DNA of 57,807 bases. Source: Streptomyces virus Yaboi (taxonomy: Duplodnaviria; Heunggongvirae; Uroviricota; Caudoviricetes). The stretch covers positions 1-57,807 of the IMG/VR virus record IMGVR_UViG_2974625447_000001; one strand, given 5' to 3'. Position numbers and translations under genes: made by a program. The notes below the pieces were generated by a model. The model was not told the DNA's origin and ran no database searches. It was given only the letters and a program-made list of their open reading frames with translations. The first letter of the stretch is position 1. Each line of letters opens with the position of its first letter. Below, in pieces: positions 229 to 15,584 of the stretch.

Positions 229-690
229 ACTTTCGTAAAGGGCATGCCAGATAGACCTTAGAATCATAGGATGTTGGGCAGATTTTGCCTTCATTCGTAA
301 AGCAGCCTGGCTAGACAGCCTGATTATGCAGCCATGATAGTCAGCCAGAGTATTCAGACATGACAGACTGATTGTTCTCTGTGTCTTATATGTAGAATTG
401 ACCCGGTGGGTAGTAGTTAGTTGTTATATGTCTTATATAGAGCAAGGGCACCTAGACCACCGGCCCAACATCTCTCCTTGTACTATGTCTTATATCGTAA
501 AACAGAAGAAGCCTGCCAAAAAGAACTGGCAGGCTTTGTTGCATGTCTTATATAAGACAGACCGAACTAACGATCTTCAATTTGAATTCGTAAAATCGTC
601 CGGGTTTTCAGGCCCATTCGTAAAGGCCCGGAAATTCGAGCCCGGAAATTTTGACGCCTATCGTAAAGGGCGAAAAATCGGACATCAGGG
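229..690. repeat. Terminal non-coding block of short repeats
   Basis: TGTCTTATAT at 382, 429, 486, 544 (the last is part of the perfect palindrome TGTCTTATATAAGACA, 544-559); TCGTAAA at 233, 295, 495, 588, 618, 661; CCCGGAAATT at 627, 641. Confidence 0.8.
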
Positions 691-909
691 TCAAATCAAA
701 AAATAGATGTACAGTGATGCTGTTAGTTAGAGTAAGCAATGAACCGCCCCGGCTAGCGCTACGCGCCACAGGATAAAATTGAAAGGTCCCTGGGCTGCTG
801 CCGACCATCAGCTATTTAACCCCTTGCCAGAACTGACTGATAGGGGACCCAGGAACACAACCTCATGACCTCACTACAATAGTGTAACAAGGTCATCGCT
901 CTGTGTCAA

Positions 910-1113
910 TCACCACTCCAGCTCATCGACCACACAGTAGTGAGAGACGAACGGAACGACCCACCGAGTGTTGAGCAGCTTGCCCCTTTCCTCCCACAGA
1001 GTGAGAGTCTTGGTTTCGTTGTTCATCTCGATACCGTTGGTCATGATCCCTGTGAATTCCAGCTCCCTTCGGACGCCTTCTTCGAGAACGATCACAGTTA
1101 CGGTGTGAGTCAT
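910..1113 (-). CDS. Hypothetical protein, 67 aa
   Basis: ORF with own promoter (1135-1163) and GAAGGG RBS. Confidence 0.8.
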   Translation of the reverse strand: MTHTVTVIVLEEGVRRELEFTGIMTNGIEMNNETKTLTLWEERGKLLNTRWVVPFVSHYCVVDELEW

Positions 1114-1183
1114 GCGATTCCCTTCGTTGGTACTAGTCTAACAGAGTACAAGGGACATGTCTACCACCGGCCAAAATAGCCGG

Positions 1184-1201
1184 GGCGGCCCGAAGGCCGC
1201 C
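1184..1201 (-). terminator. GC-rich hairpin with C(UUCG)G-type loop; representative of the cassette hairpins
   Basis: GGCGGCC-CGAA-GGCCGCC. Similar hairpins near 1600, 2802, 3308, 5697, 6153, 6743, 7224, 7755, 8210, 8893, 9608 and 9989, each just after a stop codon. Most lack a U-tract. Confidence 0.65.
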
Positions 1202-1208
1202 CGTGGGC

Positions 1209-1523
1209 TTAGTTCCAATAGGACTCGGACTCGTAGTCCTCCATCATTTCCTCGAAAGCCTCAGCGAGCCACACAGCCCGCTCCTTACGACGGATCTCAC
1301 GGCGGAGGAGAGGACCCTTCTCACCCTCATCCGCGTAGCGGTGGGGCAGGATGCGGCTGCTGGCACTGACACCGCCGTTGGCGCTGGAGTTCTGAGAGCA
1401 GAATCCGCAGCGGCAGCTACGACGACCGGTGCCGGGAATCGGAATGCCCTTGGCACTGTTGGCAAAGGCGACGGAGCGACGGTGGCCCACGATGCGGTCC
1501 TGAGTGAGCGCGTAGTAACCCAT
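1209..1523 (-). CDS. Hypothetical protein, ~104 aa, CxCxxC motif and basic C-terminus
   Basis: Start moved to ATG 1523 because of GGAAGGA RBS and the promoter at 1550-1578. Confidence 0.75.
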   Translation of the reverse strand: MGYYALTQDRIVGHRRSVAFANSAKGIPIPGTGRRSCRCGFCSQNSSANGGVSASSRILPHRYADEGEKGPLLRREIRRKERAVWLAEAFEEMMEDYESESYWN

Positions 1524-1626
1524 ACAATTCCTTCCCTCGAACTGATACGAGTCTAGCAGAGTAGTCGGCCATTGTCTACCCGAACCGGGGCGGCCAAAAG
1601 CCCCCGCCGAAGCGGGGGCCATTGAC

Positions 1627-2628
1627 TCAGGAAGCCAGAGCGAAGCCCAGGACAGCCCTACGGATCTTGTTCTTCTCGGAGTTGATCACCGGGTCGAAAC
1701 CGGAAGCAGCGGCGAAGAGGTTGTCCACCTCGCCCTTACGCGGCATGCGGTACCAGTCCAGACGCTCCGTCAGGGCGTTCAGCGCACCCGCCATGGTGCC
1801 CTGGAGAGACTGAGTGGTCTTGGGGCCGTCGCCCGTGTCGGTGAAGATCCCCATCAGCAGGTCACGCTTGTTGTCCCACTTGACCTGAGAACCCTTGACG
1901 TTCTCCTTGGGACGGTCGCCGTAGACCTCACGGATGATCTCATCGAACTGGTTCTTCGTGCACTCCGTGCGGAACAGCTCGTTCATCTCACGCTCGAACT
2001 CATCGGCGTAGGCGAACGTGATGCTCAGAGCCTCACGCGCAGCGGCCATGCGGCCCTCGATAGTCTGCGTGTGGCGCATCTTGAACGTCTGCTTCACACC
2101 GTTACGGAGTGCGAAGTTCAGCGTGTTCTGACACACGACACGGACCGGGGTGACGCTCGCCTGCACCGCAAGAGAGCCGTCGTGGGAGGTGTTGACCAGA
2201 AGATACATGTTGGTCACGTCGTCGTCACCGACCAGCACCTCACGGCCGATACGCAGAGATCCGAAGACCTGCGTACCATCCTTGATAGAACCGGCAGTTT
2301 CCCACGTGCCACCGCCCGCGAGGATGCCGTCACCGAAGGCGAACAGCTCCTCATTCTGGACGACCTTGTATCGCTCCGCGACGATACCGAGAGAGTCCGC
2401 CTCGCCGTCGAACGGGTTGGTACGGATCACCTCGAAAGCGTTCTTCTTTGTGCGCCCCTTGCGCTCCAGCAGTTCCAGCCGGACGTTCCAGTTGGAAAGG
2501 TGTGCCAGGTCCAGCATCTCTCGCGTGGACAGCTCACCCTCGAAAACAGTGCCAAGGTTGTGCCAGGCAGGCTCAGCGCGGGTGGCGAAGGCGACCTGAC
2601 CCCTGGAACCAATCTCAAGACCGTGCAT
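1627..2628 (-). CDS. DUF932-family phage/plasmid-like protein
   Basis: Motifs PAWHNLG, RYKVVQN, AGSIKDG, YLLVNTSHDGS, VRVVCQNT are typical of DUF932. AGGAG RBS before ATG 2628. Confidence 0.85.
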   Translation of the reverse strand: MHGLEIGSRGQVAFATRAEPAWHNLGTVFEGELSTREMLDLAHLSNWNVRLELLERKGRTKKNAFEVIRTNPFDGEADSLGIVAERYKVVQNEELFAFGDGILAGGGTWETAGSIKDGTQVFGSLRIGREVLVGDDDVTNMYLLVNTSHDGSLAVQASVTPVRVVCQNTLNFALRNGVKQTFKMRHTQTIEGRMAAAREALSITFAYADEFEREMNELFRTECTKNQFDEIIREVYGDRPKENVKGSQVKWDNKRDLLMGIFTDTGDGPKTTQSLQGTMAGALNALTERLDWYRMPRKGEVDNLFAAASGFDPVINSEKNKIRRAVLGFALAS

Positions 2629-2826
2629 CTTTGCTCCTAGTGTAGTCGTTTCTTCTAGCTTACTGCCATCATGACTGTCTGTCAAAGTAGTCACGCTGGC
2701 CTGCCGAACGGGGTTTCCCCCTGTTCATGTTCTTAGTCTAACAGGGTCGGCCTGATCTGTCGAAGAGATTTGGGACATGATCATTTCGCCGGGGCGGCTT
2801 TGCGGCCCCGGAGGGCCGCTAGCCAA

Positions 2827-3219
2827 TTAGGGAATCATGCCGAGCGGTTCCCACGTTTCGATAATCTCGTCATCCGTGACAGCCGCTACAGCCTGGTACT
2901 CACCCTCTCGCACGTTCGAAGAGGTGTCATAGACAACGACACGGTAACCCGCATCGTCCAAGTCGTAGCCGAAGTTTTCGAACCAGCGTGCGACTTGATC
3001 CGGGGAGGTGAGAACACAGTATTCGTTCTCCTCGATTCCCCCGAAAATGTCGGTCCACGGAGTGGGGTGCGTCTCGTCCACGTGCTCACGGCACAGACGA
3101 TTGGAAACGGCCTTTACCTTCTCGTCGGAAGAATTCCAGCCCTCACGGTAAGGGCCAGACCAGCTTCCCGAACTGTTGCCCACGTGCTCAGGCGGCAGGG
3201 CAACACGGTAAACGATCAC
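2827..3219 (-). CDS. Conserved-type phage hypothetical protein (YRV...GPY...HPxP motifs)
   Basis: GTG start with GGAGG RBS; own promoter at 3251-3280. Confidence 0.75.
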   Translation of the reverse strand: MIVYRVALPPEHVGNSSGSWSGPYREGWNSSDEKVKAVSNRLCREHVDETHPTPWTDIFGGIEENEYCVLTSPDQVARWFENFGYDLDDAGYRVVVYDTSSNVREGEYQAVAAVTDDEIIETWEPLGMIP

Positions 3220-3328
3220 GATTCCTCCAATGTCTCCCAACGTTTAGACCAGTCTAACGGATGGTCAGCAGTCTTGGCAAGGCGCGTTAGCTAGATCTTT
3301 TAGCCGGGGCGGCCCGAAGGCCGCTTTG

Positions 3329-3673
3329 TCAATCTCCCATGCGAATGATGATCTGCTCAATGACGAACCGGCACACAGCAGCTCGATTGTATTCGTCGTC
3401 ATTGCGCGTAGTGCCGTTAGCCTCTTTTGCAGCCATTGCGTTAATGATAGCTACGGCCAGGTCAAAGAGAGGCTTTTGCAATGACTCATGTTCACTGCAC
3501 ATCAGGTAAGCAAGGGTGTGGGCGTCGAATGTACGCTTATTGAGAACGGAAAGGATTTTGTCGGCATCCTTTTCCGCCGGGCTTCGACGTGTAGACGTTA
3601 CTCGCGCGCCCTGATATACATCGGGCGCGATGACTGTTGTTTCTGCCAGTCGAAAGATGTCGCCATTAGCCAT
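3329..3673 (-). CDS. Hypothetical protein, 114 aa
   Basis: GGAGG RBS; ends at a cassette hairpin. Confidence 0.8.
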   Translation of the reverse strand: MANGDIFRLAETTVIAPDVYQGARVTSTRRSPAEKDADKILSVLNKRTFDAHTLAYLMCSEHESLQKPLFDLAVAIINAMAAKEANGTTRNDDEYNRAAVCRFVIEQIIIRMGD

Positions 3674-3714
3674 TACGCCTCCAATAAAGCGGCCCCCTTT
3701 CGGGGGCCGCAGTC

Positions 3715-3876
3715 CTACTTGGGTTCGAAGTCTTGCGTATTCCCATATCCGTCAGATACGCTGACAGACATTCCGAGTACCGTTGCCAGGAAGGGGCCGA
3801 GAGCTTGGATCATGCTCCATGCCTGATCTTCCTGGTCATCTCCGTTGGGCTCGATTTCGAGCATGACGTTGGCCAT
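3715..3876 (-). CDS. Small hypothetical protein, 53 aa (MANVMLEIEPNGDDQEDQAWSMIQALG...)
   Basis: Translated by hand. It fills the gap between the Lsr2-like stop and the hairpin at 3689-3710. Confidence 0.6.
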   Translation of the reverse strand: MANVMLEIEPNGDDQEDQAWSMIQALGPFLATVLGMSVSVSDGYGNTQDFEPK

Positions 3877-3885
3877 ACTTCTACC

Positions 3886-4398
3886 TTACTTGCTCTTGAC
3901 TTCAACGTCAAGGCCGAGTACGACCGGGGAGCCGCAGCCGCAGTGAGACAGAGAATAGCCGCACTTGCAGACTTCCCGCTCACTGAACTTCCAGACCTTA
4001 CCCTTACGGTCCACCGCGAGGTATTCGACATTCTTCCCACGGGTCGGCTCCGCGTGCGGACGAACATCCTTGCCGGTCGGTGCCTTCACACCGGAAACGG
4101 CCTCCGCCTTCACATCCGGATTGGCCTTTGCGTACGCCTCCAGAATCTCACTGGAAATACGGCCACGGGAGTTGACCTCGATACCGTTGGCCTTGGCCCA
4201 GGCACGGACCTTCTTTGCGTCATAGGCACCGGCCTTGACGGTGGCGGGCTTGTTGGTACGGACCACGCCCGTGTCAGCGAAGACGGTACCCTTGGCCTCA
4301 GCAGCCTCGATAGCCGCGTAAGCGGCCTTAGACATGCGACCCCTCTTGCCCATCTCGGCAAGGCCCAGGCTGGCGGCGTACTCACGACGAGTCTGCAT
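3886..4398 (-). CDS. lsr2: Lsr2-like DNA-binding protein with two RGR domains and a Cys-rich tail
   Basis: VRAWAKANGIEVNSRGRISSEILEAY matches the Lsr2 C-terminal domain. A second similar unit (REYAASLGL..KRGRMS) lies at the N-terminus. Confidence 0.85.
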   Translation of the reverse strand: MQTRREYAASLGLAEMGKRGRMSKAAYAAIEAAEAKGTVFADTGVVRTNKPATVKAGAYDAKKVRAWAKANGIEVNSRGRISSEILEAYAKANPDVKAEAVSGVKAPTGKDVRPHAEPTRGKNVEYLAVDRKGKVWKFSEREVCKCGYSLSHCGCGSPVVLGLDVEVKSK

Positions 4399-4508
4399 TT
4401 TGGTCCCTTCGTTGTCCTTCGTTGTACCTTAAGCATAACAGAGGTGTCGGAGGGCGGCAACATAAAATTTGTCCGATTTGTCTCGCCGCCCCGGCCCGAA
4501 GGCCCGCA

Positions 4509-5234
4509 CTATTTCTTAGTGCGAGAGAACCGGATATCTGCCTTACCGAAAATGCAAAGGCCACACGTTACGCACGCGCCACCCTTTTCGGTAATGAGAG
4601 GAATCCTCTTTGCATTCTCCGGGCACATTCCACCGGGAACACCCGTGAGAGTTTCGAGAATTTCCTTGCCTTCGTTGAAGGTCTCGCCAAGATAGGCAAG
4701 CTTCACACCCGGATTGTCAGCCGCGCAAAGAAGCCCGGCGTTAAGGTTTTCCTTGTCTACGCTGAGATAGACAGACAGGTTAGGAATGGACGTGATGAAT
4801 CCTACATACTCGAATGAACGAGTGTAGATCCAGAAATGCACGTCGGGGAATGCGAGGCAGGTTGTCTCAATTGCCTCCGCATATGCAGCCGAGAAAATGT
4901 CACCATCGGCGTGCCAACGGAAAAGCCTGGGGACGTTGTGCTTCTCGCACTCAGTCACAAACTCACCGATCATCTCACCCAAAAGTGAGATCATCTCGGC
5001 AAGGGAGGCATCCTTGAGCAATTCCCAATTGTGCATGGCGACTGCCAGGAATGCCGGATACTGCTTTTCGATCCTACCCGCATAGCAGATAGTCTCACAA
5101 ACTCCCGTAGCACCGGGGCAGGAAAACGCCTTGCCAGACGGCAGAGAAAAGGCGTTTTTGATCAGCGATTGCTTCCCGGCCTTGTTGGCTCGGACGGTGG
5201 TCTTCCGGTCGTTCGTTCGCTTGAGTGCGTTCAT
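4509..5234 (-). CDS. GP88-like (radical-SAM-related) Fe-S protein
   Basis: FSLPSG..CPGATGVCETICYA, FRWHADGD, WIYTRS and a C-terminal CPE..CxxCxxC, as in the mycobacteriophage GP88 family. Confidence 0.7.
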   Translation of the reverse strand: MNALKRTNDRKTTVRANKAGKQSLIKNAFSLPSGKAFSCPGATGVCETICYAGRIEKQYPAFLAVAMHNWELLKDASLAEMISLLGEMIGEFVTECEKHNVPRLFRWHADGDIFSAAYAEAIETTCLAFPDVHFWIYTRSFEYVGFITSIPNLSVYLSVDKENLNAGLLCAADNPGVKLAYLGETFNEGKEILETLTGVPGGMCPENAKRIPLITEKGGACVTCGLCIFGKADIRFSRTKK

Positions 5235-5303
5235 GGATCGATTCTATCAGTGAGTGCCAGGTCTGTGCAACATGTTTCAACTAAGATCAAAAAGCCGGGG
5301 CGG

Positions 5304-5615
5304 TTACCCGCGCGCTCCGGGCCAACCGAGTTCTTCCCATTGCCAGTCAAAGCAATCATCGGACTCTTCGAAGATCGGAATCTCTTCGATCCCCAAAAGA
5401 TAAGCAATCATCAGACGGTGATGACCGTTGTAGAAGGTATTGGTTTGGAAATCATACACGCATCCAGCCTGAATGCCGTGCTGTGCGACAGAAGAGACAA
5501 ACTCCCAATCAATATGGTTGAGCTTGTCATAGAACATTTCCCACTTGGTTTCTCCGTCAAGCTGGTCGTTGAAGATCGCGTTCTTCATCAGCCATTCGAC
5601 GTTCGCCATGATCAT
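5304..5615 (-). CDS. ParB/Srx N-terminal-like small protein (paralog 1)
   Basis: NGHHRLMIAYLLG (the GHHR motif of the ParB/Srx fold); AGGAGG RBS. Confidence 0.7.
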   Translation of the reverse strand: MIMANVEWLMKNAIFNDQLDGETKWEMFYDKLNHIDWEFVSSVAQHGIQAGCVYDFQTNTFYNGHHRLMIAYLLGIEEIPIFEESDDCFDWQWEELGWPGARG

Positions 5616-5660
5616 GGTGTCCTCCTGTCGCTAATGACAGCTTACATCATCATGCTCCGA

Positions 5661-5730
5661 GATGCAACACTTTTTCAAAAGAGCCGGGGCGGCCAAACGG
5701 CCCCCGAAGGGGCCGTTGGCTAGATGATCA
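5661..5730. repeat. 70-bp exact direct repeat, copy 1 (copy 2 at 8857-8926)
   Basis: Base-by-base comparison. It contains a stop codon, hairpin, box and -35 element. Confidence 0.9.
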
Positions 5731-5892
5731 CTTGGGGGCGACCTCGAAGTCGTCCAGGCCGAGCGCGATGGTCTCGAACTCGTTGGCCATGTTTTCGGTC
5801 ATCTCGGCGGTGATGTTGCGGACCAGACGGACACGCGCGGTGGCGGTCATGGGGGTCTCAGCGATGACCTTGGCGATGGCGAGAGCCTTCAT
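5728..5892 (-). CDS. Small hypothetical protein, 54 aa (MKALAIAKVIAETPMTATARVRL...)
   Basis: Translated by hand; own promoter (5922-5950), GAAAGG RBS, GC3-rich codons. Confidence 0.75.
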   Translation of the reverse strand: MKALAIAKVIAETPMTATARVRLVRNITAEMTENMANEFETIALGLDDFEVAPK

Positions 5893-5947
5893 TTTAGAGC
5901 CTTTCGTCGTGGTGTGTTCTTAGTCTAGCGTATCGAGCTTGGCTTGT

Positions 5948-6046
5948 CTACTCGCAGTCCACCAGAATTTCCATGTCGTCCAGGTGCGCGTCGGCACCGT
6001 AGGTGTCGTCCTGCTCGTCGGTGATCTTCGCAAGGGTGACGGCCAT
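5948..6046 (-). CDS. Acidic 32-aa peptide (MAVTLAKITDEQDDTYGADAHLDDMEILVDCE)
   Basis: Own promoter (6087-6116) and GAGGTGG RBS. The stop codon overlaps the next -35. Confidence 0.65.
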   Translation of the reverse strand: MAVTLAKITDEQDDTYGADAHLDDMEILVDCE

Positions 6047-6130
6047 GGGAACCACCTCTCCGGGATTTCTCCCTTTCGATGTCTCTAGTCTAACAGACGC
6101 AAGGGATAGGGGGCAACACGAATCTTTCAA

Positions 6131-6170
6131 GATCTTTTGACCGGGGCGGTTCGCGCCCCGAAGGGCGCTA
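6131..6170. repeat. 40-bp exact direct repeat, copy 1 (copy 2 at 9586-9625)
   Basis: GATCTTTTGACCGGGGCGGTTCGCGCCCCGAAGGGCGCTA at both sites. Confidence 0.9.
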
Positions 6171-6174
6171 GCCG

Positions 6175-6636
6175 TTAGCCGTTGCAGACCGGGCAGTCCG
6201 AGTCACAGCCGTAGCTGTAGCTGTCTTCGTACTCGTAGCTCTCCGCGCGTTCCAGGTCGCTGATGTGGTCCTCGATCAGCTTCTTCGCTTCCGCGATGCT
6301 GAGGAACGGGAACTTGTCCCGCAGCGCCTTGATGCAGACGATCTTGAAGGTTCGTCCGTTGTCGGCCACGATGCCGGGCACGGCCTGCCGCACCTCGTTG
6401 GCGGCGTAGTCCTCGATGCTGCGCAGACGGATCATCTCCTCACGGGAGACGGTCAGACCCTCGTTCCGGGCCTGAATTCGACCCTCCGTCACGCCGACCT
6501 TGTGGCCGTTCGCGTAGCTGGTGTTGATCACCGGCTGGAACTCGTTGACGATTCGGTCCGCCAGCTCGTAGGCGTCGGCCAGGCTCATGTCCAGCTCGGC
6601 GTCGTTGAACAGGTTCACGATCTTCGCGGCGTCCAT
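6175..6636 (-). CDS. Protein with ribosomal L7/L12 C-terminal-like motif (paralog 1)
   Basis: KIVCIKALRDKFPFLSIAEAKKLIE versus the bL12 consensus KIxxIKxxRxxxxLGLKEAKxxVE. Confidence 0.6.
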   Translation of the reverse strand: MDAAKIVNLFNDAELDMSLADAYELADRIVNEFQPVINTSYANGHKVGVTEGRIQARNEGLTVSREEMIRLRSIEDYAANEVRQAVPGIVADNGRTFKIVCIKALRDKFPFLSIAEAKKLIEDHISDLERAESYEYEDSYSYGCDSDCPVCNG

Positions 6637-6767
6637 GAATTCCTCTCTTAGAGGGTGTTTCCCTCTTTGATGTCTCTAGTCTAGCAAGGAAGGGGGAGCG
6701 AATGCAACATGATTCTTGAAGATCTTTTCGCCGGGGCGGCTAGCGGGGCCGAAGCCCCGCCGCCTAT

Positions 6768-7124
6768 CTACCGACGCCCCATGGGAAGGCCCTTCCGAGC
6801 CGCTTCCCTTTCCAGCTCCCAACCGTTGTTTGTCTCTTCCGGGTGGATGTACTCCACTTCGGTGATCCCGAGCAGGTACGCGACGAGCAGCCGGTGATGA
6901 CCATTGGTCACCATGTTCGTGCTGGGGTTGTAGACGATGGGAGTCTGAATGCCGTCACGCTCGATGGACTCGATGAACTGCCGGGGAAGCTCATCGAACT
7001 TCTCCAGCATGCACCGTTCCTTGTCATCCATCCAACGGGAGCCGAAGCGCCCACGTTCCCGAGAGTTTTCCGCGTCACCGAAGATCGCATCGTGCCAAAG
7101 CTTTTCGACGTTGACCTTGGGCAT
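6768..7124 (-). CDS. ParB/Srx N-terminal-like small protein (paralog 2)
   Basis: SIERDGIQTPIV...NGHHRLLVAYLLG is a ParBc-like signature. Confidence 0.75.
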   Translation of the reverse strand: MPKVNVEKLWHDAIFGDAENSRERGRFGSRWMDDKERCMLEKFDELPRQFIESIERDGIQTPIVYNPSTNMVTNGHHRLLVAYLLGITEVEYIHPEETNNGWELEREAARKGLPMGRR

Positions 7125-7249
7125 CTTCACTCCTGAGTCTCGCCCTGTTGGTAATTCGAGTATAGCGAAGCATGTGATGAGGAGTCAACTCAACTCATCA
7201 AGATCTTTTGACCGGGGCGGCTAGGCCGCCCGAAGGCGGCCCGGCGCGA

Positions 7250-7393
7250 TTAGATCCAGTTCCAGCCGATGTGGAGCAGTGCTCCGATGACCATGATCAG
7301 AAAGGCGGTGATGCCGATGTTGACCAGAAAGAGCAGAACAGCAGTCGGGCCGTTAACGTTGGAGGCGGTGATCGGACCCTTGATGTTGTACAT
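7250..7393 (-). CDS. Small membrane protein, 47 aa
   Basis: Translated by hand (MYNIKGPITASNVNGPTAVLLFLVNIGITAFLIMVIGALLHIGWNWI); AGGAG RBS. Confidence 0.7.
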   Translation of the reverse strand: MYNIKGPITASNVNGPTAVLLFLVNIGITAFLIMVIGALLHIGWNWI

Positions 7394-7507
7394 GACGCTC
7401 CTAGAATATCGATCCGACGATTGTTGCTGCTGTCCACAATCCTAGCAGACCTAGGCAGACAAGGAAAGGTATGAGGACCAGCAATCCTACACACCCGATG
7501 ATCTTTG

Positions 7508-7666
7508 TCAGATCCACTCAAGCGGGTCGTAGTCGAAGATGTCTCGGTGATCACGGAAGCGATTGGCACGCTCCCTGCGGATCTTGCCGAGCTTCTTCAC
7601 TTCCTTGATCTTCTGGTTCTTGTTGCGGTACTTCTCGACGCGCTGTGCACGGAGATCGCTTCGCAT
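7508..7666 (-). CDS. Small basic protein, 52 aa
   Basis: Translated by hand (MRSDLRAQRVEKYRNKNQKIKEVKKLGKIRRERANRF...); own promoter at 7691-7719. Confidence 0.7.
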   Translation of the reverse strand: MRSDLRAQRVEKYRNKNQKIKEVKKLGKIRRERANRFRDHRDIFDYDPLEWI

Positions 7667-7776
7667 CTTCGTTCCCTTCGTTCTGACTCAAGTATATAGG
7701 GAGAGAGGGCCAGATGCAACACGTCTAAGGAAGATCTTTTCGCCGGGGCGGCTAGCGCCCCGAAGGGCGCAGCCGA

Positions 7777-8112
7777 TCAGTTGTCCATGATCGTGTGATA
7801 GAAGTTCTGGTAGGAACGCGCGCCGTCGATGGCGTCCTGCAAGCTGTCGTAGCCCATGAAGTCGTCCAGGGTCTCGATCTTGAAGAAGCCGTCCACGTTG
7901 CGCGTCGCGTAGCGGAGGCTGTAGGACTTGTACTTCGGGTCGTCCATGTACTCGGACGTGATGAAGATTACGCCACGCTGGCCGATGGGGAAGAGGTCGT
8001 TCTCATAGAGTTCGGTGTTGAAGAACCGCATGGACGAGCTGGAGAACCAGTGGAGCGCCTGCGAAGTGGTCTCGCGGGAAGCCTTCTTGATCTGGTCCAT
8101 CGTGGAAAACAT
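7777..8112 (-). CDS. Conserved-type phage hypothetical protein (HWFSxxSMRFF motif)
   Basis: ATG 8112 with GAGAGG RBS, downstream of promoter 8141-8170. Confidence 0.8.
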   Translation of the reverse strand: MFSTMDQIKKASRETTSQALHWFSSSSMRFFNTELYENDLFPIGQRGVIFITSEYMDDPKYKSYSLRYATRNVDGFFKIETLDDFMGYDSLQDAIDGARSYQNFYHTIMDN

Positions 8113-8232
8113 TTGCGTTCCTCTCGCTCGGTGTAAGTAGAGTCTAACACAGTCCAACGACAGAGTACAACACCAATTTCTCAAGATCTTTTGACCGCCC
8201 CGGCCAAATGGCCCCCGAAGGGGCCAGATGAC

Positions 8233-8499
8233 TTACAGCTTCGGCTTCTTGCCGATTCCCATGCTCTTGCCGAAGTCGTAGGACTTGCCCTTGACCTCAT
8301 ATCCGTTGACCGCGCGGGTGACTCGGAACGGCGCAGCGTGGTGAAGAGCGGACAGCTTCTCAGCGGTACCGGCCGCCGTCACGTAGACTCGACCCTCACG
8401 CTCGCTGACCCGGTAGTCCAGTTCGACGCCATAGACCGTAGCCATCGTGATGACGACACCGGCACGCTTGGTGGAAACCTCACCGAAGAGAACAGCCAT
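8233..8499 (-). CDS. Hypothetical protein, 88 aa
   Basis: GAAAGG RBS; its promoter is embedded in the 3' end of the upstream gene. Confidence 0.8.
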   Translation of the reverse strand: MAVLFGEVSTKRAGVVITMATVYGVELDYRVSEREGRVYVTAAGTAEKLSALHHAAPFRVTRAVNGYEVKGKSYDFGKSMGIGKKPKL

Positions 8500-8532
8500 T
8501 TTATTGCCTTTCGTCGTTGTGACTAGAGTCTA

Positions 8533-8811
8533 TCAGATGCGGTGAACGTTGTCACGCAGTTCGGTGAACGTGTGCGGACTGGCCACCAGCTCGGCATTGC
8601 GGTAAAACCCGTGATCCACAAGGACCGTGATCGAATTGTACACGACACTCTGAACAGTGCCAGTGTAGGCGATCTTGCCGTTGATCTCAAGGCCCTCGTT
8701 CAAGTAGAGCTGAGCCCACGAATTGGTGACCAAAACCCTGTCACCCTTACGGATCTTTCCGTAGTTGCTTTGGAGATGCTTCCTGATCCTGTAGCTCAGC
8801 GGCATCGACAT
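8533..8811 (-). CDS. Hypothetical protein, possibly SH3/KOW-like
   Basis: IRKGDRVLV motif; start placed downstream of promoter 8835-8863. Confidence 0.7.
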   Translation of the reverse strand: MSMPLSYRIRKHLQSNYGKIRKGDRVLVTNSWAQLYLNEGLEINGKIAYTGTVQSVVYNSITVLVDHGFYRNAELVASPHTFTELRDNVHRI

Positions 8812-8923
8812 GATCTCTCCCTTTCGTTGAGACGAGTCTACATGACACCGGGTCAGGATGCAACACTTTTTCAAAAGAGCCGGGGCGGCCAAACGGCCCC
8901 CGAAGGGGCCGTTGGCTAGATGA

Positions 8924-9496
8924 TCAGCACTGGCAGCCGCATCCCTTGCAGCAGCCGCAGGCGTAGTATTCGCCGCATCGACCGATGGAGTCAATGGCCA
9001 CGTCGTTGGTCGTCAGCTTCTCACGCAGCGCGTTGAGAGCGGAGTCCGTGGCCAACTCCGGTTCCGGCTTCGGGGAGTTCTTCTCGGCCTCCTCGATCTT
9101 GGCCCAGTCGAGCTGGTCGGTCGTCCCGACCGGCTTGATCATGTCCATGATCGCCTTGGCCTCGATGAGACCCAGCGGGCGGAACTTGTCCCGGAGGATC
9201 TTGATGCAGGTGATCTTGCGGGTCAGGTCACGCTCGGTGAAGTTCATGACGGCCCAGGCCGTGGCCTCCACAACCTTCGGGTCGAAAGCCGCACGGATGG
9301 AGTTCTTGCCCGCCTCGACACCAGCGTTGTACTGCTCCTGGCCGTAGACGTACTTCGCGTCCTCGGCCTTGTACTTCTCGTCCTCCATCTTGCGACGGAA
9401 GCCACGCTCGATGTCCCCCGCGAACTGAAGGGCGGTCTGGATCTTGGCCTCGGGGAAGTAGTTGCCGACCTGCTCGACGATCTTGATCTTCTCCAT
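8924..9496 (-). CDS. Protein with ribosomal L7/L12 C-terminal-like motif and Cys-rich tail (paralog 2)
   Basis: KITCIKILRDKFRPLGLIEAKAIMD; tail CGEYYACGCCKGCGCQC. Confidence 0.65.
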   Translation of the reverse strand: MEKIKIVEQVGNYFPEAKIQTALQFAGDIERGFRRKMEDEKYKAEDAKYVYGQEQYNAGVEAGKNSIRAAFDPKVVEATAWAVMNFTERDLTRKITCIKILRDKFRPLGLIEAKAIMDMIKPVGTTDQLDWAKIEEAEKNSPKPEPELATDSALNALREKLTTNDVAIDSIGRCGEYYACGCCKGCGCQC

Positions 9497-9629
9497 GACA
9501 AACCCTTCTCTCTAGGGGCCTCTTGCCCCTTTCGATGTACTAAGCTTAGCAGAGTCTAGCGCGCCATGTCCAACTGCTCTTTCATGATCTTTTGACCGGG
9601 GCGGTTCGCGCCCCGAAGGGCGCTAACCT

Positions 9630-9929
9630 TTACTCCCAAGGCGCGTAGTCGCTCTCACGCTCGGCAGGCTTACGCTCGATACGGTCCCGGTACTGGCCGA
9701 TGCTGTTGACCGACCAAATCGGCTTGAGACCCTTGTTGCTGTAACGCTTCTTGGTCAGACGCTTGAGGACGGTTTCCGCCTCACGACGGGAACGAACCTT
9801 GATCGACACGCAGGGCTCACGATAGTTGTACCACCAGCCACCCTCTTCGGACCCGCCGTATGCGCGGTCCTCAAGGTAGATGTTGGCGTAGAACGGACGG
9901 GGCTTGCGAACCTTCGGCGTCTTCTTCAT
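9630..9929 (-). CDS. Hypothetical protein with DRAYGGxEEGGWWY motif
   Basis: Leaderless-type ATG 7 nt after the TAGACT -10. Confidence 0.75.
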   Translation of the reverse strand: MKKTPKVRKPRPFYANIYLEDRAYGGSEEGGWWYNYREPCVSIKVRSRREAETVLKRLTKKRYSNKGLKPIWSVNSIGQYRDRIERKPAERESDYAPWE

Positions 9930-10006
9930 AGGGATGAGTCTAACAGAGTATCGGGCCGGTGGCAACAGATTCTCAATTTAGCCGGGGCGGCCCCGAAGGG
10001 CCTCCA

Positions 10007-10162
10007 TTAGAGAGACTTGGTTTCGATCTTCCGACACTTAAGACACTTGCGAGCCTGCATGAGCTGGGTCCATTCGACAGGACGACCCTTGATCCATCCG
10101 AGCAGAGGGCTATCCATGTGAGCAGTGAACACATTCCATGGCGTCCACTTGTGAAAACACAT
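10007..10162 (-). CDS. Small Cys/His-containing protein, 51 aa
   Basis: TAATG coupling to the upstream gene; CxHxW...CxxC. Confidence 0.65.
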   Translation of the reverse strand: MCFHKWTPWNVFTAHMDSPLLGWIKGRPVEWTQLMQARKCLKCRKIETKSL

Positions 10163-10410
10163 TACTTGTCCCTCCAAAGGAACTGACCCTGACACGCACA
10201 GTCGTTCGGAACCCTGTCTACCTTCTTGAAAGCACGATTGATCGTTGTGCGCGGGTAGACAGCTCGCAGACACTCACGGGGGTTGTGATGCCCCACCTTG
10301 ATCCACTCGTCTACGACTTCTACATAGAGGAAAGTCTGTTCGTGTCCACGCTCCACAGGATCGGAAACGTAGACATCACCTTCGGAGATCCAGTTGATTC
10401 CCAGGTTCAT
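10162..10410 (-). CDS. Hypothetical protein, 82 aa
   Basis: Leaderless ATG 6 nt after TAGACT. Confidence 0.7.
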   Translation of the reverse strand: MNLGINWISEGDVYVSDPVERGHEQTFLYVEVVDEWIKVGHHNPRECLRAVYPRTTINRAFKKVDRVPNDCACQGQFLWRDK

Positions 10411-10608
10411 GTCTGTAGTCTAGCAGTCCGATTCCTTAGTTGGCAACACGTTGCGCCGATTTTTTAGTCTCTAGATGTCTGCACAGATTTTTAGTCATCT
10501 AGCCGGGGCGGCTAACTTTTTAGTCAAAAATTCACCCCTGCATTTCGAAGGTTTTTCGTGCATATACCTAAGAAACACAGGGGTGAAAATCTCTGCGAAT
10601 TTATTTGC

Positions 10609-10839
10609 TCAGGTCCACAGCTCCTCTACCTTGGACCAAAAGCGGTGGATTCGCGGGTCGTTGTTGTCATTGGCGTAGAAGGGATCATAGATCGTGCCCG
10701 TGATCACCCATGCCGCATGCGGATTGAATTCGGCAAGGCGGTTGAAGCAGAATTGCCCGTATCGCTGTCCCTTGTTGTCTCTCTGGAATTCAGCGATAGT
10801 GTCGAGAATGAATTGATTCAAGGTGAGGTCAGCGGGCAT
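10609..10839 (-). CDS. Hypothetical protein, 76 aa (RYGQxxFN motif)
   Basis: Coupled to the upstream stop. Confidence 0.7.
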   Translation of the reverse strand: MPADLTLNQFILDTIAEFQRDNKGQRYGQFCFNRLAEFNPHAAWVITGTIYDPFYANDNNDPRIHRFWSKVEELWT

Positions 10840-10840
10840 T

Positions 10841-11017
10841 TCACTTCCAATCGGTGGGAAGTCCACGGCCGAGGGTGATCTTCTTGTCCAGCTTCTCGAA
10901 TTCCTCCATTCCGGCAATACAACCGGCAATGGTTACTCCGTTGGGAGTCTTCTTGAATGCCTCCCACTTTGCGCGAATGTCGTCCAATATGAGCTGCATT
11001 TCCCTCTCAGCAGACAT
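10841..11017 (-). CDS. Hypothetical protein, 58 aa
   Basis: GAAGGA RBS; operon packing. Confidence 0.65.
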   Translation of the reverse strand: MSAEREMQLILDDIRAKWEAFKKTPNGVTIAGCIAGMEEFEKLDKKITLGRGLPTDWK

Positions 11018-11219
11018 ACTTTTCGTCCTTCCCACTACCACAAAGGCAGTATTTGGAATGTTTTGCTTCTACCGGGCGAAATCCTCTTTCGTTGTACTTT
11101 TTCAGCAGATTTTCGAGATTTCCCGAAGAAATTACGCCCGTTTCAGAAAAGAGACCGTTCTTTTCCAGCGTGAGGGTAAGCGAATGCGTCAGAACGATTT
11201 TCTGCTTTTTCTTGAACAT
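11007..11219 (-). CDS. Hypothetical protein, 70 aa
   Basis: AGGGAAG RBS; overlaps the next gene. Confidence 0.6.
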   Translation of the reverse strand: MFKKKQKIVLTHSLTLTLEKNGLFSETGVISSGNLENLLKKYNERGFRPVEAKHSKYCLCGSGKDEKYVC

Positions 11220-11273
11220 TGCTTCCCTTTCTACCCCTAATGGGGGATACCCTTTCGGATATCCCCCAATTGG

Positions 11274-11417
11274 TTACGCCAGTTCGGAAACGTGAGGGTA
11301 GGCGTCCCAGTCGATCTCTACGGTACGCGCGTCCTCGTGGACGGTGGAAACGGGCAGCTCAGAAGCGGAAACCAGACCCTCGGATACCGCACGCTCCAGC
11401 AGCTCAGCAGTGGTCAA
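11274..11417 (-). CDS. Small acidic protein, 47 aa
   Basis: Translated by hand from a TTG start with GGAAGGG RBS, behind promoter 11450-11478. Confidence 0.6.
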   Translation of the reverse strand: MTTAELLERAVSEGLVSASELPVSTVHEDARTVEIDWDAYPHVSELA

Positions 11418-11479
11418 GATGATCAGTCCCTTCCTTGTGGTGTGTTACCAGTCTAAGGGATAGATCTACGCTGGTCAAC

Positions 11480-11700
11480 CTGAAAAGTCCCCGGAAATTT
11501 TTCGTACCTTTCGTACACGCGCGGGTGGAATGTCCCGGAAAATCCTAAATGCCCTCGTAAACCCGAATGCCCCATATGCCAGGGATGCCCGATATGGGTA
11601 GGGTTTGATACGGTATGTCCGATTTGCCTGGTCTGTACCCAATGTCCGATTTGCCCCATATGTCCGGCCGCCCCGGTCAAAATCCTTTACCAAGTCGTTA
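11480..11700. repeat. Non-coding low-complexity repeat block
   Basis: ATGTCCGATTT at 11615 and 11642; CCCGGAAAWT at 11490 and 11534; ATGCCC variants; one box at 11668. Confidence 0.7.
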
Positions 11701-11783
11701 CCTAGAATCTCGAAAATCGGGGGTTTCAGCGTCCCTACTGGGGTAGTCTGTAGGTACAACGACGAACACAAGGGAGACAGACA

Positions 11784-12245
11784 ATGATCACCACCACCGC
11801 CCCGGTCACCGCTCACGACAGCAGCACCCACCAGTGCCGCGCGGATGACCGCACGGCCGGTAGCGCGTACCGCCGTCAGCTCCTCGCTACGGTGCTTATG
11901 CTGGCTAGCCTTACGGGACACTCGGACGGTGAAACCTACGCGGTGTGTGTGGGTTGTGGGCAGGATGCCTACGTTGGCGGTAACCCCCGCAGCATGGACA
12001 CGCTCAACCTGGGGCACTGTGAGGCTGACGCAACGGGTGGCACGTACTGCGCTGCGAACATGCTTCCCCTTTGCAGGCAGTGCAACGAAGACATGGGTAA
12101 GGAAAGCCTTACCGATGTGCTGGTTCCCCTGTATGACAACCGTCACATGTGGAATGGGAAGCTGGTCAAGGACAACGGCAAGGTTAAGCAGGAGCCGCAG
12201 GCTAACCGTGGACGTGCCAACTGGACGCGCCCCACGGGGGCGTGA
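11784..12245 (+). CDS. HNH endonuclease-like protein
   Basis: CVGCG...LGH...GG...NMLPLCRQCN is the zinc-binding HNH pattern. Confidence 0.75.
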   Translation: MITTTAPVTAHDSSTHQCRADDRTAGSAYRRQLLATVLMLASLTGHSDGETYAVCVGCGQDAYVGGNPRSMDTLNLGHCEADATGGTYCAANMLPLCRQCNEDMGKESLTDVLVPLYDNRHMWNGKLVKDNGKVKQEPQANRGRANWTRPTGA

Positions 12246-12496
12246 GCGGCCTAGGGGGACCGCCCCGGTAGGGAAACCTACCGGGGCACTTTCATGCCCT
12301 TAGACGGGCGCACAGAGCTTTTGAACACGATTTTCAAATGGCCGCCCCGGTCCGTGGAACCTTCCCCGGAGCAAAAGTCAAGCCATATGGGCGCACTAAT
12401 CGAATTGTTACAAAGGTATGCGAAGCATGTATCATACATCACAAAAAATTACTAACATTTCGAATCTGAAAATAGATGATCTTGTAGCCGCCCCGG

Positions 12497-12724: not shown

Positions 12725-12920
12725 CGCTCATATCCCAGCTTGGAGGCGGACCAGCAATCTTGCCTTGCTTATGCAGTGCTAGAAGCTTTACTGCCTCTTC
12801 GGGATTTACTCCTCTGGCTACACACATCATTACGTCATAGAGTCTTAGGAGCATAATGGTGCTTACTACTTCATAGCTGTCTTGGTCAAAGACATCCTTC
12901 TCGCCGGGCTCATTTTGCAT
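12708..12920 (-). CDS. Hypothetical protein, 70 aa
   Basis: Overlaps both neighbours in a packed operon. Confidence 0.7.
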   Translation of the reverse strand: MQNEPGEKDVFDQDSYEVVSTIMLLRLYDVMMCVARGVNPEEAVKLLALHKQGKIAGPPPSWDMSDDSQD

Positions 12921-13602
12921 TTAGAGCCTCCAGCGTCTTTGGAAATGCCTTGCTTGTCAGATCATTGACAGCCTTAGCATACTGCTGAATTTCGTACTGA
13001 GCGTCATGCTCTAGTCTTTCTGCAAGGAAATGAGCAACGGTTGCCAGACTTGTTGTCCATCGCCACCGGACGAACATTCCATATGCAGGAAGAAATAGTC
13101 TTGCCTGCTCAGGGGCAATCTCCTCATCCATTGCCTCCTTGTAGAGTTCTTCCCCCTTGAGGATATAATCTACGAGAAGAGAAGTGAATTGATGACCCTT
13201 GCTCTTGTCAATAGGCTCTCCGCTTCCTTGCTTTGAATTAGCTGGCTTAGAGCGCCATGAACCGCCATCCGGAATGTAGAATTCCGGCTCCTCGGTAATG
13301 TACCTTCGAGAAGATTCATTCCAGCCGGTCTGATCTTCCAAATGGCTGCTTGCCACTGCGTACTTCCACCACTGACGCGCTACGAATAGTGGAGCATATA
13401 CCTCAAATGTCAATGCTGCGTGCCTAAACGGGGAAAGATGACCTTCCCGAACAAGGAACTTTAGTAGTCTGTCGTCCCTGTCGGAAAAGTCATCTGATTC
13501 CTTCGCATAGGAAACACGCGCCGCATTGACGATGGAAATATCATTGCCCATGTAATCTACAAGACGGACATAACCCTTGCCCAATACGTCAATCTTCGTC
13601 AT
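12910..13602 (-). CDS. thyX: Flavin-dependent thymidylate synthase ThyX
   Basis: NAARVSY, GHLSPF, APLFVARQW, NESSRRY, ARLFLP, HxAQxEI. Start reassigned to MTKIDVLGKG. Confidence 0.93.
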   Translation of the reverse strand: MTKIDVLGKGYVRLVDYMGNDISIVNAARVSYAKESDDFSDRDDRLLKFLVREGHLSPFRHAALTFEVYAPLFVARQWWKYAVASSHLEDQTGWNESSRRYITEEPEFYIPDGGSWRSKPANSKQGSGEPIDKSKGHQFTSLLVDYILKGEELYKEAMDEEIAPEQARLFLPAYGMFVRWRWTTSLATVAHFLAERLEHDAQYEIQQYAKAVNDLTSKAFPKTLEALNAK

Positions 13603-13852
13603 TTTCCCACTCTCTGTTGATATACCAGTCCCACTCTTGATCTTCGAATGCTTGATTCCACTCTTCTTCTGGGAGATCTGATTCGACAATCTGGACCTTG
13701 AACTTATGCACTTCGCCGGTTTCTCTTGACAGCACCGCGAAATGATCTCCAACGTATGTGATATCGATTTCATCATCGTTGGGTATTCTGTTGTTGTGCA
13801 CTTCCTCAAAGAGAAAGCAATCGAGATAGCTTAATGCTTCTTGTCTATCCAC
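13589..13852 (-). CDS. Acidic hypothetical protein, 87 aa
   Basis: ORF in a packed operon. Confidence 0.7.
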   Translation of the reverse strand: MDRQEALSYLDCFLFEEVHNNRIPNDDEIDITYVGDHFAVLSRETGEVHKFKVQIVESDLPEEEWNQAFEDQEWDWYINREWENDED

Positions 13853-14012
13853 TTAGGTTTTCAATCTCTCCATCTAGACGCTTTATCTCTCTTTGGGCAC
13901 GCTTCATACCTAGTTGATCTCCTGACCGCCGGGCCTTTTCAAACGCCCTGGCCTGATTGCGCCTCTGCTCTCGCAGATTATTGAGAGCACGTCTTACGCC
14001 AAAATCAACCAT
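13845..14012 (-). CDS. Small basic coiled-coil protein, 55 aa
   Basis: Translated by hand (MVDFGVRRALNNLREQRRNQARAFEKARR...); overlaps both neighbours. Confidence 0.7.
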   Translation of the reverse strand: MVDFGVRRALNNLREQRRNQARAFEKARRSGDQLGMKRAQREIKRLDGEIENLSG

Positions 14013-14166
14013 TTTCAGCTAGCCAATCATGCATGGCCTTGATTATCTCGGCCTGCTTTGAAGCTTCTCTTCCCGCCTTTTCCTTGCGCGCCCGGACATA
14101 TGCCTTCTGGGCTGCCTCAAGTATTCGGTTTGCTTCGTTAACATTTCTCGGTCTAGGGACCGCCAT
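14005..14166 (-). CDS. Small helical protein, 53 aa
   Basis: Translated by hand (MAVPRPRNVNEANRILEAAQKAY...); AGGAG RBS. Confidence 0.7.
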   Translation of the reverse strand: MAVPRPRNVNEANRILEAAQKAYVRARKEKAGREASKQAEIIKAMHDWLAENG

Positions 14167-14167
14167 T

Positions 14168-14603
14168 TGTCACTCCTAACCGTGACACTCTAGTCACGTC
14201 ATCTCGTATGTCACTAGAGTGTCACAGCTTTTGTCACCTGTCAAGGTGACATACGTGACAGAGCAACTGTGATCGTATTAGCAGGAATGTCACGACCCTT
14301 GATGTCACTGATTAGCTTGCGAAGCTCAGCTTTGTCACGGGTTCCGTCATCCCATAGCTCTTTGACCAGGCGTGACACACTCTTTTGCTTGTCATCTGTC
14401 ATGTCACGACGTGGAATTTCTGTCACGGTTGTCACGATTGGCGTGACATTTGTTTCTTCCTTGACAGCGGTGTCACCCTTTGTCATGACAGGCTTGGTGA
14501 CACTTTTGTCACCGGTTTTGTCACGCTTGTCACGTGACATCTTCTTAGGTGTCACTGACTTGTCACGCTTTCGTGACAGACTTTCACCTGTCACGTTTGT
14601 CAC
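14168..14603. repeat. Cluster of ~26 TGTCAC/GTGACA hexamers
   Basis: 18 TGTCAC and 8 GTGACA counted by eye. They span the 3' third of the ORF and the downstream intergenic DNA. Confidence 0.95.
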
Positions 14604-15125
14604 GACTTCATTGAGTCGGAAGAATACTACGTTTTTGAATCCCTTGAATGTCTTCCATGGGAAGATCATCCAGCTTACCTTACCGAAGACTGGCATCCTC
14701 TTAGGAACCAGTCCATTTGCTCGCATCTCAGAACGGTGCACAAAGCGCAGGTACAATTCAAACAATACACCTGCGATAACTGGCGGTGCTCCAAAAAGAA
14801 CTTTTCCTGGAGTCCCATAATTCAGTAGCGCTGCATGCTCTACGTTCAGATATACGGAAGTTCCGACAAATATGTATGTGGCTAGCTTTGGCGCTAGTCC
14901 ACTGTCCTCTGTTCTCGCGTACTTGGATGCAAGGTCAGCGACAAACAAAGCAGCGCCGTCGAATGCAATGCTTACTCCGAAAGCTAGTGCCTTTGGAACT
15001 CCGTAGAATTCTACGGCCATAGAATAAAGGCTCCACCAGCTTAGAGCAAGTGCTACGATGAGCACTGATCCGAATGAAACTGCGCCTCGCCAGTCCATGA
15101 GACGAGTGAGGTTGGGCTTTTTCAT
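14241..15125 (-). CDS. DUF2637-like 4-TM membrane protein with repetitive linker and helical C-terminal domain (Spd-like)
   Basis: Four hydrophobic segments with SWxxL, DG and E.Y features seen in DUF2637; AGGAG RBS before ATG 15125. Confidence 0.7.
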   Translation of the reverse strand: MKKPNLTRLMDWRGAVSFGSVLIVALALSWWSLYSMAVEFYGVPKALAFGVSIAFDGAALFVADLASKYARTEDSGLAPKLATYIFVGTSVYLNVEHAALLNYGTPGKVLFGAPPVIAGVLFELYLRFVHRSEMRANGLVPKRMPVFGKVSWMIFPWKTFKGFKNVVFFRLNEVVTNVTGESLSRKRDKSVTPKKMSRDKRDKTGDKSVTKPVMTKGDTAVKEETNVTPIVTTVTEIPRRDMTDDKQKSVSRLVKELWDDGTRDKAELRKLISDIKGRDIPANTITVALSRMSP

Positions 15126-15150
15126 TGGTCTCCTTAATGACAAAAAGGCA

Positions 15151-15170
15151 GGCGGCCCGAAGACCGCCTG
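15151..15170 (-). terminator. Intrinsic terminator-like hairpin
   Basis: GCAGGCGG stem followed by CTTTTT on the minus strand. Confidence 0.65.
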
Positions 15171-15182
15171 CTATTAAATTGT

Positions 15183-15584
15183 TTATCGTGCTGACTCTGT
15201 AAACATCCAGAGCCACTTATCGACGCCGCGCTTAATTTCGATTAGTACATCTTGCGTAGCGAGGTCGTCTGTGATATTAAAGATAGCACCTGAGAGGACC
15301 ATTGTCAAACTCTCAAGAGAGGACTTTATCCCGCTGACGACTTGTAGATATGAGACTGATTCCCCAGAGAATTCATAGGAAACCTTTGGCGCGAGGTACA
15401 TCTCTCTCGCTCTTGCTCTTTCAGCTACAGTATCGGCATATTCAGTGATATCTTCATGAAACTCGTCTAGCTTCTCGTGAAGGTAAAAGAATTCCTTACC
15501 TCGGAGATTCCAGTGGTTCTCCTTGGTCGCCAAGGAGAGTATTAGTAGCCATTCCAGAATCTCTTCCAGCTTCTGTTCTAGCAC
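15183..15584 (-). CDS. dps: Dps/ferritin-like protein
   Basis: KENHWNLRGKEFFYLHEKLDE...DTVAER is the Dps ferroxidase motif; AAGGAGG RBS. Confidence 0.85.
   Translation of the reverse strand: MLEQKLEEILEWLLILSLATKENHWNLRGKEFFYLHEKLDEFHEDITEYADTVAERARAREMYLAPKVSYEFSGESVSYLQVVSGIKSSLESLTMVLSGAIFNITDDLATQDVLIEIKRGVDKWLWMFTESAR

Follow-up and report, generated by a model that had tools for sequence, protein, structure and literature searches.

Introduction

Repeated binding sites that lie within the gene of the protein that binds them are familiar from phage lambda, with ori in the O gene, and from SPP1, in which oriL lies in gene 38 and a second array, oriR, lies elsewhere. Both binders, lambda O and SPP1 gp38, are soluble initiators, and their sites adjoin AT-rich unwinding regions. 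Bacillus phage phi29 encodes the membrane-anchored p16.7, through which its replicating DNA is attached to the membrane; p16.7 has a single transmembrane (TM) helix, binds DNA without sequence specificity and has no cognate site array. In the Streptomyces conjugative plasmids pSVH1, pJV1, pWTY27 and pIJ101, the membrane-anchored TraB/Tra proteins, which carry an FtsK/SpoIIIE ATPase domain and a C-terminal helix-turn-helix (HTH)-type domain, are paired with clt/TRS sites. A clt locus groups several 7-9-bp repeats close to or at the 3' end of a tra gene, where TraB or TraA binds them, and its word is specific to the element; the pWTY27 clt, for example, consists of four copies of TGACACC bound by TraA (PMC4447253, PMC3583192). 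The spread proteins SpdB2 and SpdB of Streptomyces plasmids are integral to the membrane, with four predicted TM helices; they bind double-stranded DNA and work with TraB. SpdB2 binding is non-specific, and no site array has been described for it. For the SpdB2 homologues of actinophages, a role in spreading phage DNA has already been speculated upon (PMC4447253).

Here we analyze a locus that shares features with each of these systems. It lies in a stretch of 57,807 nucleotides (the window), which is the left 57.8 kb of the 131,250-bp genome record of Streptomyces virus Yaboi, a record bounded by 12,432-bp direct terminal repeats. The DNA of the region is 83-87% identical to that of Karimacvirus phages (LukeCage, Karimac, MindFlayer and others), which make up part of the actinobacteriophage BE cluster (Stanwilliamsviridae, Boydwoodruffvirinae), and BE phages are regarded as virulent (PMC10690885). 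Our literature search found no published description of site arrays embedded in DUF2637 genes, and the papers in the library searched that name DUF2637 deal with other topics.

Results

A hexamer array overlies the 3' third of a DUF2637 gene

The word TGTCAC, counted on either strand, occurs 26 times at 14168-14603, whereas the rest of the window (~57 kb) has only 18 copies. At the genomic background of 50 sites in ~130.6 kb, ~0.17 copies would be expected in these 436 bp. The whole 131,250-bp genome holds 90 copies, 40 of which fall in two clusters. Array 1 (14168..14603) runs in both orientations and includes four TGTCAT in addition to the exact copies; its spacing is irregular (6-39 bp), and its extended consensus is t-TGTCAC-g. 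It overlies the gene for a 294-aa membrane protein (14241..15125, minus strand; Pfam PF10935, phrog_10376), with 21 of the 26 copies in the 3' third of the gene (the last ~130 codons) and none in the first ~170 codons. The remaining five (starts 14168, 14182, 14209, 14220 and 14232) lie just downstream, outside the open reading frame (ORF), and form a non-coding part at 14168..14237, in the gap that separates the DUF2637 stop codon from the start of the following gene (14005-14166, minus strand). The right-hand copies of this non-coding part are conserved in four Karimacvirus relatives. The 21 coding copies span four strand/frame combinations: GTGACA is read as V-T five times and as x-D-x nine times, and the reverse orientation, in two frames, accounts for the other seven. 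An earlier note on this DNA, made from the letters alone, had described ~26 copies in ~440 bp on both strands and in several frames, with five outside the ORF, and our count and site map agree with it.

A 16-nt inverted repeat with one mismatch, also described in that note, is present within the non-coding part (14182-14197 / 14210-14225); it comprises four motif copies and has a 12-nt spacer. Its left arm, however, is not conserved in LukeCage, Wofford or Karimac, so it is the motif copies rather than the hairpin that look selected, and we discarded the hairpin as a selected feature. The accompanying proposal, that the protein autoregulates neighboring genes through a TAGAGT -10 element, was not supported. 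The match of the intergenic copies to a promoter (GTGACA-16-TAGAGT, 9/12) is at chance level, with 3 such sites in the region versus 1.7±1.3 in shuffled sequence, and the left arm of the inverted repeat is not conserved.

On its other side, the DUF2637 gene is preceded by a strong intrinsic-terminator-like hairpin (15148..15171, minus strand; 10-bp stem, 8 G-C pairs, T-run), 22 nt upstream of its start codon, and no clear promoter of its own was seen. The hairpin follows a Dps/ferritin-like gene (window 15183-15584, minus strand; Pfam Ferritin 7e-10; phrog 'DNA binding protein') that lies directly upstream. The pairing of the two genes is kept in most BE relatives; the Dps-like gene is not annotated in Angela. 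Two further features of the surroundings were recorded. The left direct terminal repeat (window 1-12432), which has an identical copy at the right end, has a G+C content of 0.52-0.58 compared with 0.44-0.50 in the remaining window. A ThyX-type thymidylate synthase gene lies at window 12910-13809 (minus strand); its true start is probably internal, since the listed ORF begins far upstream of the start annotated in relatives.

The array is selected as DNA rather than as protein

We re-encoded the DUF2637 protein with the codon usage of the genome in 5000 trials. The resampled genes held 2.8±1.5 sites, with a maximum of 8, compared with the 21 observed. Codon choice within the gene differs accordingly from that of the genome: [RSGC]-D-x tripeptides are coded with GTGACA in 9 of 9 cases versus 23 of 150 (15%) genome-wide, and V-T dipeptides in 5 of 7 cases versus 9 of 184 (5%) genome-wide. 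All ten BE-type relatives examined (51-96% protein identity) carry exact sites, 10-20 per gene, toward the 3' end; their first ~170 codons have none. Among these relatives the positions, frames and strands of the sites change while their number is kept, and the linker peptide that the sites encode is poorly conserved in both sequence and length. Thus, as the earlier note had claimed, the array is selected as DNA rather than as protein.

These data bear on whether the array binds anything at all. It could instead have arisen incidentally, as repeats expanded in a coding region of low complexity, or consist of sites that a nuclease system avoids or uses, and the linker is indeed of low complexity and tolerant of change. 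Tandem expansion would nevertheless leave periodic units, none of which are seen; the spacing is irregular, the copies face both ways, the word is kept as its positions turn over, and there are non-coding copies as well as a second, fully intergenic array. We therefore give an array devoid of binding function only a very small chance.

A second array lies between genes 64 kb away

The sole other cluster in the genome, array 2, comprises 14 TGTCAC and 5 TGTCAT at genome positions 78,634-78,843 (L018:4635-4844), outside the window and 64 kb from array 1. The 365-bp gap in which it lies has a DUF3307 gene on one side and an 84-aa ORF on the other, and two terminator-like hairpins bound the array. 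LukeCage, Mildred21, Coruscant and Daubenski have a TGTCA[CT] cluster at the corresponding place (~77-79 kb). Because array 2 is wholly non-coding, the TGTCAC word acts as a signal at the level of DNA.

Two arrays 64 kb apart, one of them insulated by terminator-like hairpins, call to mind a pair of iteron-type origins comparable to SPP1 oriL and oriR, whose reader would be either the DUF2637 protein or a different phage initiator, with membrane anchoring secondary. Iterons inside the gene of their binder are classical (lambda O/ori, SPP1 gp38/oriL), and in one phage the DUF2637 gene comes after a RecE/RecT-type module. Satellites also speak for an origin: those of BE phages lack replication genes and still keep a membrane protein (PMC10690885), and satellite-like elements carry a DUF2637 gene at the place where PICI-type satellites have rep/ori. 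However, no AT-rich unwinding element lies by either array (A+T 0.45-0.60 per 100 bp), in contrast with the lambda and SPP1 origins. The cumulative GC skew of the genome follows transcription: it is lowest at 17 kb, the point at which transcription diverges, and shows no inflection at 78.7 kb. In addition, the phage Kromp has, apart from its DUF2637 gene, a gene for a large HTH_36 protein that may serve as the initiator there, and an initiator that is an integral membrane protein would be without precedent. On balance, we consider origins of this type distinctly unlikely.

The protein is predicted to join a membrane domain to an HTH-like tail

Residues 23-165 of the protein match DUF2637 with 28.4 bits (gathering score 22.8; 1.8e-6), and the protein matches phrog_10376 at 1.5e-115 and is 100% identical to database protein P0001. 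The homologues of Kromp, pNO33 and the NBC_01353 element likewise score above the Pfam gathering threshold. An AlphaFold model built with 20 homologues has four long predicted membrane helices (residues 6-40, 45-70, 77-100 and 105-136; pLDDT 64-87 per ten-residue block), encoded by codons 1-136 (14718..15125, minus strand), a segment with no TGTCAC site. Amphipathic helices are predicted at residues 146-179. The end of the amphipathic segment and the linker that follows (codons 175-243; 14397..14603, minus strand) are site-rich and poorly conserved, and residues 180-239 have a pLDDT below 50, as expected of a disordered stretch. The C-terminal domain (codons 244-294; 14244..14396, minus strand) is conserved across BE phages and satellite-like elements and is modeled as a three-helix, HTH-like bundle (residues 250-292; pLDDT about 86, and 80 when modeled alone) whose last helix reads NTITVALSRM.

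The nearest structural neighbor of this bundle is the DNA-binding domain of the G20c small terminase (Z 6.1, 2.4 Å over 48 residues), and the next ones, namely ArgR, the KorB DNA-binding domain, Lrp/AsnC, PadR and Rok, are likewise HTH DNA-binding domains, although for so small a domain no single match is significant (Z at most 6.1; Foldseek E above 3). The full-length model had no match in the PDB with a Foldseek E <= 0.001. The Pfam match and the model thus agree with the architecture anticipated in the earlier note: a four-helix DUF2637-like protein with a linker and a helical C-terminal domain.

The comparison with SpdB2-type spread proteins that the same note drew was less well supported. 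The protein is predicted to have the four TM helices of an SpdB2-like integral membrane protein (residues 6-136, AlphaFold), but pIJ101 SpdB, on which we judged the comparison, has no Pfam hit, and its hhalign comparison with the DUF2637 family alignment gives a probability of 2%. Nor is the gene placed in an spd operon alongside traB, the TraB-like gene of this phage being ~60 kb away.

Distant relatives carry different words in the same place

Lineage-specific words occupy the same part of distant DUF2637 genes as TGTCAC does here. The temperate phage Kromp and eight viral contigs (84-96% identity) carry 17-22 copies of TGTCCG, and a 93-kb element of Streptomyces sp. NBC_01353 has 33 copies of CGCTCA in its DUF2637 gene. 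The conjugative plasmid pNO33 has 27 copies of GGCACA, which extend from the 3' half of the gene through the spacer into the next gene; the gene for a relative of its protein at 56% identity has 16 copies of the same word. The DUF2637 homologues of Muntaha, Keanu and L033 have no hexamer array in the gene. A search for viral relatives of the NBC_01353 DUF2637 protein found none.

This diversity of words bears on whether a host protein might read the sites, for example the response regulator MtrA, with the arrays serving as a decoy or as a sensor of host state. All hosts are Streptomyces, and the core GTCAC fits the published MtrA half-site, since MtrA sites are GTnAcC-n5-GTnAcn in Streptomyces and GTCACAgcg repeats in mycobacteria (PMC13189361, PMC12323332). 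Nevertheless, just two site pairs in array 1 show, on the same strand, the 11-bp register of the MtrA direct repeat, and the half-sites defined experimentally in S. venezuelae are loose (for example TGTCGAA and TCTCAAG), none of those listed being TGTCAC. Moreover, DUF2637 lineages that infect the same host genus use different words (CGCTCA, GGCACA, TGTCCG), which argues for a reader encoded by the element and leaves a host reader highly unlikely.

Within the BE cluster, the mix of words appears, with moderate confidence, to track the last helix of the DUF2637 protein rather than the C-terminus of a TraB/FtsK-like protein encoded by the same phages. Karimacviruses, in which the last helix is NTITVALSRM or NTISVSLSRL, use TGTCA[CT] only. 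Tomas, Samistivirus and Coruscant, with NT[IV][SN]KAVSRLD, have an extra 10-14 TGTCC[CT] sites (11-17 when TGTCCG is included). Across this Karimacvirus versus Tomas/Samistivirus divide the TraB-like C-terminus is 82-91% identical, while in Coruscant it is only 49% identical and yet the word mix is of the Samistivirus type. In the one relative of Kromp that has a changed last helix (L051; RSTVVRTFNRL), the word shifts from TGTCCG to TGTCCT. The residues x-T-[IV] open the last helix in all lineages with a TGTC core and are absent from the two lineages with other words. The suggestion in the earlier note that homologues might carry different hexamers co-varying with their C-termini is therefore borne out in kind by TGTCCG, CGCTCA and GGCACA and by the mix that follows the last helix, through evolutionary events that are few and confounded by phylogeny.

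A TraB/FtsK-like translocase is a second candidate reader

All BE phages examined encode a TraB/FtsK-like protein. In this phage, the gene for this membrane translocase (phrog_12531) lies outside the window at genome positions 74,584-76,467 (L018:585-2468), and its product has a TM segment, a GGGKS P-loop and a winged-helix-like C-terminal tail. It is 23% identical to pIJ101 Tra over 258 aa of the ATPase domain (E 2e-6). The Pfam model FtsK_SpoIIIE does not detect it, and as a PDB sequence query it gave no matches. This gene and array 2, which lies downstream, are 2.2 kb apart, with small genes and tRNAs between. The DUF2637 gene is adjacent to the TraB-like gene only in Keanu and the NBC_01353 element.

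The arrays could accordingly be clt/TRS-like sites that are read by the winged-helix-like tail of the translocase, with the DUF2637 protein a mere accessory partner. A short, element-specific repeat cluster, as in clt/TRS, is present, and since the array nearest to the TraB-like gene is array 2, 2.2 kb downstream, with no other clt-like array evident in the vicinity, the pump could be the reader; the adjacency of the two genes in Keanu and the NBC_01353 element points the same way. Known clt repeats, however, sit at or near tra 3' ends (PMC3583192, PMC4447253), while array 1 lies in the DUF2637 gene and 2.2 kb separate array 2 from the TraB-like gene. The 26 and 14 copies, in both orientations and in a lytic phage, far exceed the 4-9 described for clt, and the word mix follows the DUF2637 helix rather than the translocase. 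Arrays are also found in pNO33 (T4SS type) and Kromp, neither of which has an annotated TraB-like gene, an absence that rests on annotation and on Pfam scans of large ORFs. Our other searches, with PF01580 in five related records and with the BE TraB-like protein and pIJ101 Tra against Kromp, Keanu, Muntaha, pNO33 and the NBC_01353 element, are too insensitive to establish absence, since they missed the annotated FtsK-like gene of Keanu. Finally, in the NBC_01353 element and in Keanu, separate clt-like arrays accompany the TraB-like genes, with words unlike the DUF2637 word. Taken together, we regard the translocase as an unlikely reader, and as the most probable of the alternatives weighed here.

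In the 93-kb NBC_01353 'plasmid', five to six copies of GGTGTCG run across the 3' end of the TraB-like gene (L042:410-769), and CGCTCA lies in the DUF2637 gene, which suggests two reader/site pairs. The GGTGTCG array resembles the pWTY27 clt word TGACACC, and the record also carries phage-like genes (HNH, ParB-like). In Keanu, gp93 (L022:4888-5210) holds GACCCGGA five times, in exact form and on a single strand, together with many GGTCCGG in ~320 bp. GACCCGGA is the recognition word of pSVH1 TraB, and the cluster sits just upstream of the FtsK-like translocase gene gp94, making it a candidate clt in a phage.

Satellite-like elements carry the gene with a degenerate array

Low-GC (54-58%) integrated elements of roughly 12-13 kb were seen in Streptomyces chromosomes (L035:3324-16089, L036 and L037), with the gene order integrase, Lsr2-like, DUF2637, terminase, portal, scaffold and capsid. 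They resemble the BE-phage satellites of the MulchRoom/MiniFlayer type, a group without replication genes whose members have a predicted membrane protein in common (PMC10690885). Their DUF2637 protein is 49% identical to that of the phage and has the same type of tail and a very similar last helix, and in its linker region the array is no more than a degenerate one with a GACA core (12-15 per 300 bp).

Discussion

From an array that is selected as DNA and conserved among relatives, from the words specific to each lineage and from the type of fold predicted for the C-terminal domain, we propose that the DUF2637 protein is the reader of these sites. The explanation we prefer, to which we give about an even chance of being right, is that phage DNA is tethered to the membrane by a membrane-anchored, HTH-like protein bound to arrays of sites of its own. 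The protein would consist of a four-helix DUF2637 domain in the membrane, a disordered cytoplasmic linker and a C-terminal HTH-like bundle that would recognize the hexamer TGTCA(C/T). About 45 such sites are kept in two arrays, one in the DNA for the linker and tail of its own gene and the next 70 bp, and the other at array 2. With many copies of the protein bound at these arrays, the phage genome would be fixed to the cytoplasmic membrane. Sites placed within the gene of their own reader would keep protein and target genetically linked, as in traB/clt, lambda O/ori and SPP1 gp38/oriL. Several observations weigh against this explanation: the gene has no hexamer array in Muntaha, Keanu and L033; the satellite-like elements combine a very similar last helix with a degenerate array; the position of array 2 leaves room for the pump as reader; and the gene, behind a strong terminator, shows no clear promoter. 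What may follow tethering can be ranked: first, the DNA could be passed to the TraB/FtsK-like translocase for the crossing of hyphal cross-walls, and second, replication could be organized at the membrane, in an origin-like role.

Each of the described systems matches this arrangement in part. Like TraB/Tra with clt/TRS, the phage protein is predicted to be membrane-anchored with a C-terminal HTH-type domain, its cis repeats are clustered (6-9 bp across these systems) and lie partly within the 3' end of the presumed reader's gene, and each element has its own word (PMC4447253, PMC3583192); unlike TraB/Tra, it has no ATPase domain and belongs to DUF2637 rather than to FtsK/SpoIIIE. With SpdB2 and SpdB it shares membrane integration and the number of predicted TM helices, and it differs from SpdB2 in being accompanied by a site array. 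Like p16.7 it would be encoded by the phage, anchored in the membrane and able to bind phage DNA and attach it there, yet it shows no homology to p16.7. In contrast with lambda O and SPP1 gp38, it is predicted to be membrane-integral.

A bolder extension of the tethering model is that the HTH membrane marker, the TraB-like pump and the cis arrays form a three-part, conjugation-like module that moves naked phage genomes across cross-walls, with satellites carrying their own copy to ride along. We consider it unlikely that the module exists in this full form. If it does, BE-type phages and many other actinobacterial mobile elements would be capable of capsid-free spread within the mycelium.

Whatever reads it, the locus is a clear case of a coding region over-written by a code at the level of DNA, which matters for annotation and for synonymous recoding. 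If the protein does read its own array, the pair would be a compact, self-specifying module connecting a mobile genome with the membrane, of a type widespread in Streptomyces phages, plasmids and satellite-like elements, with its own word in each lineage. DUF2637 would thereby gain a function, which could also explain why this one membrane protein is retained in BE satellites that lack replication genes. Two arrays and one helix would then offer a handle on how large lytic phages organize or move DNA within compartmented hyphae.
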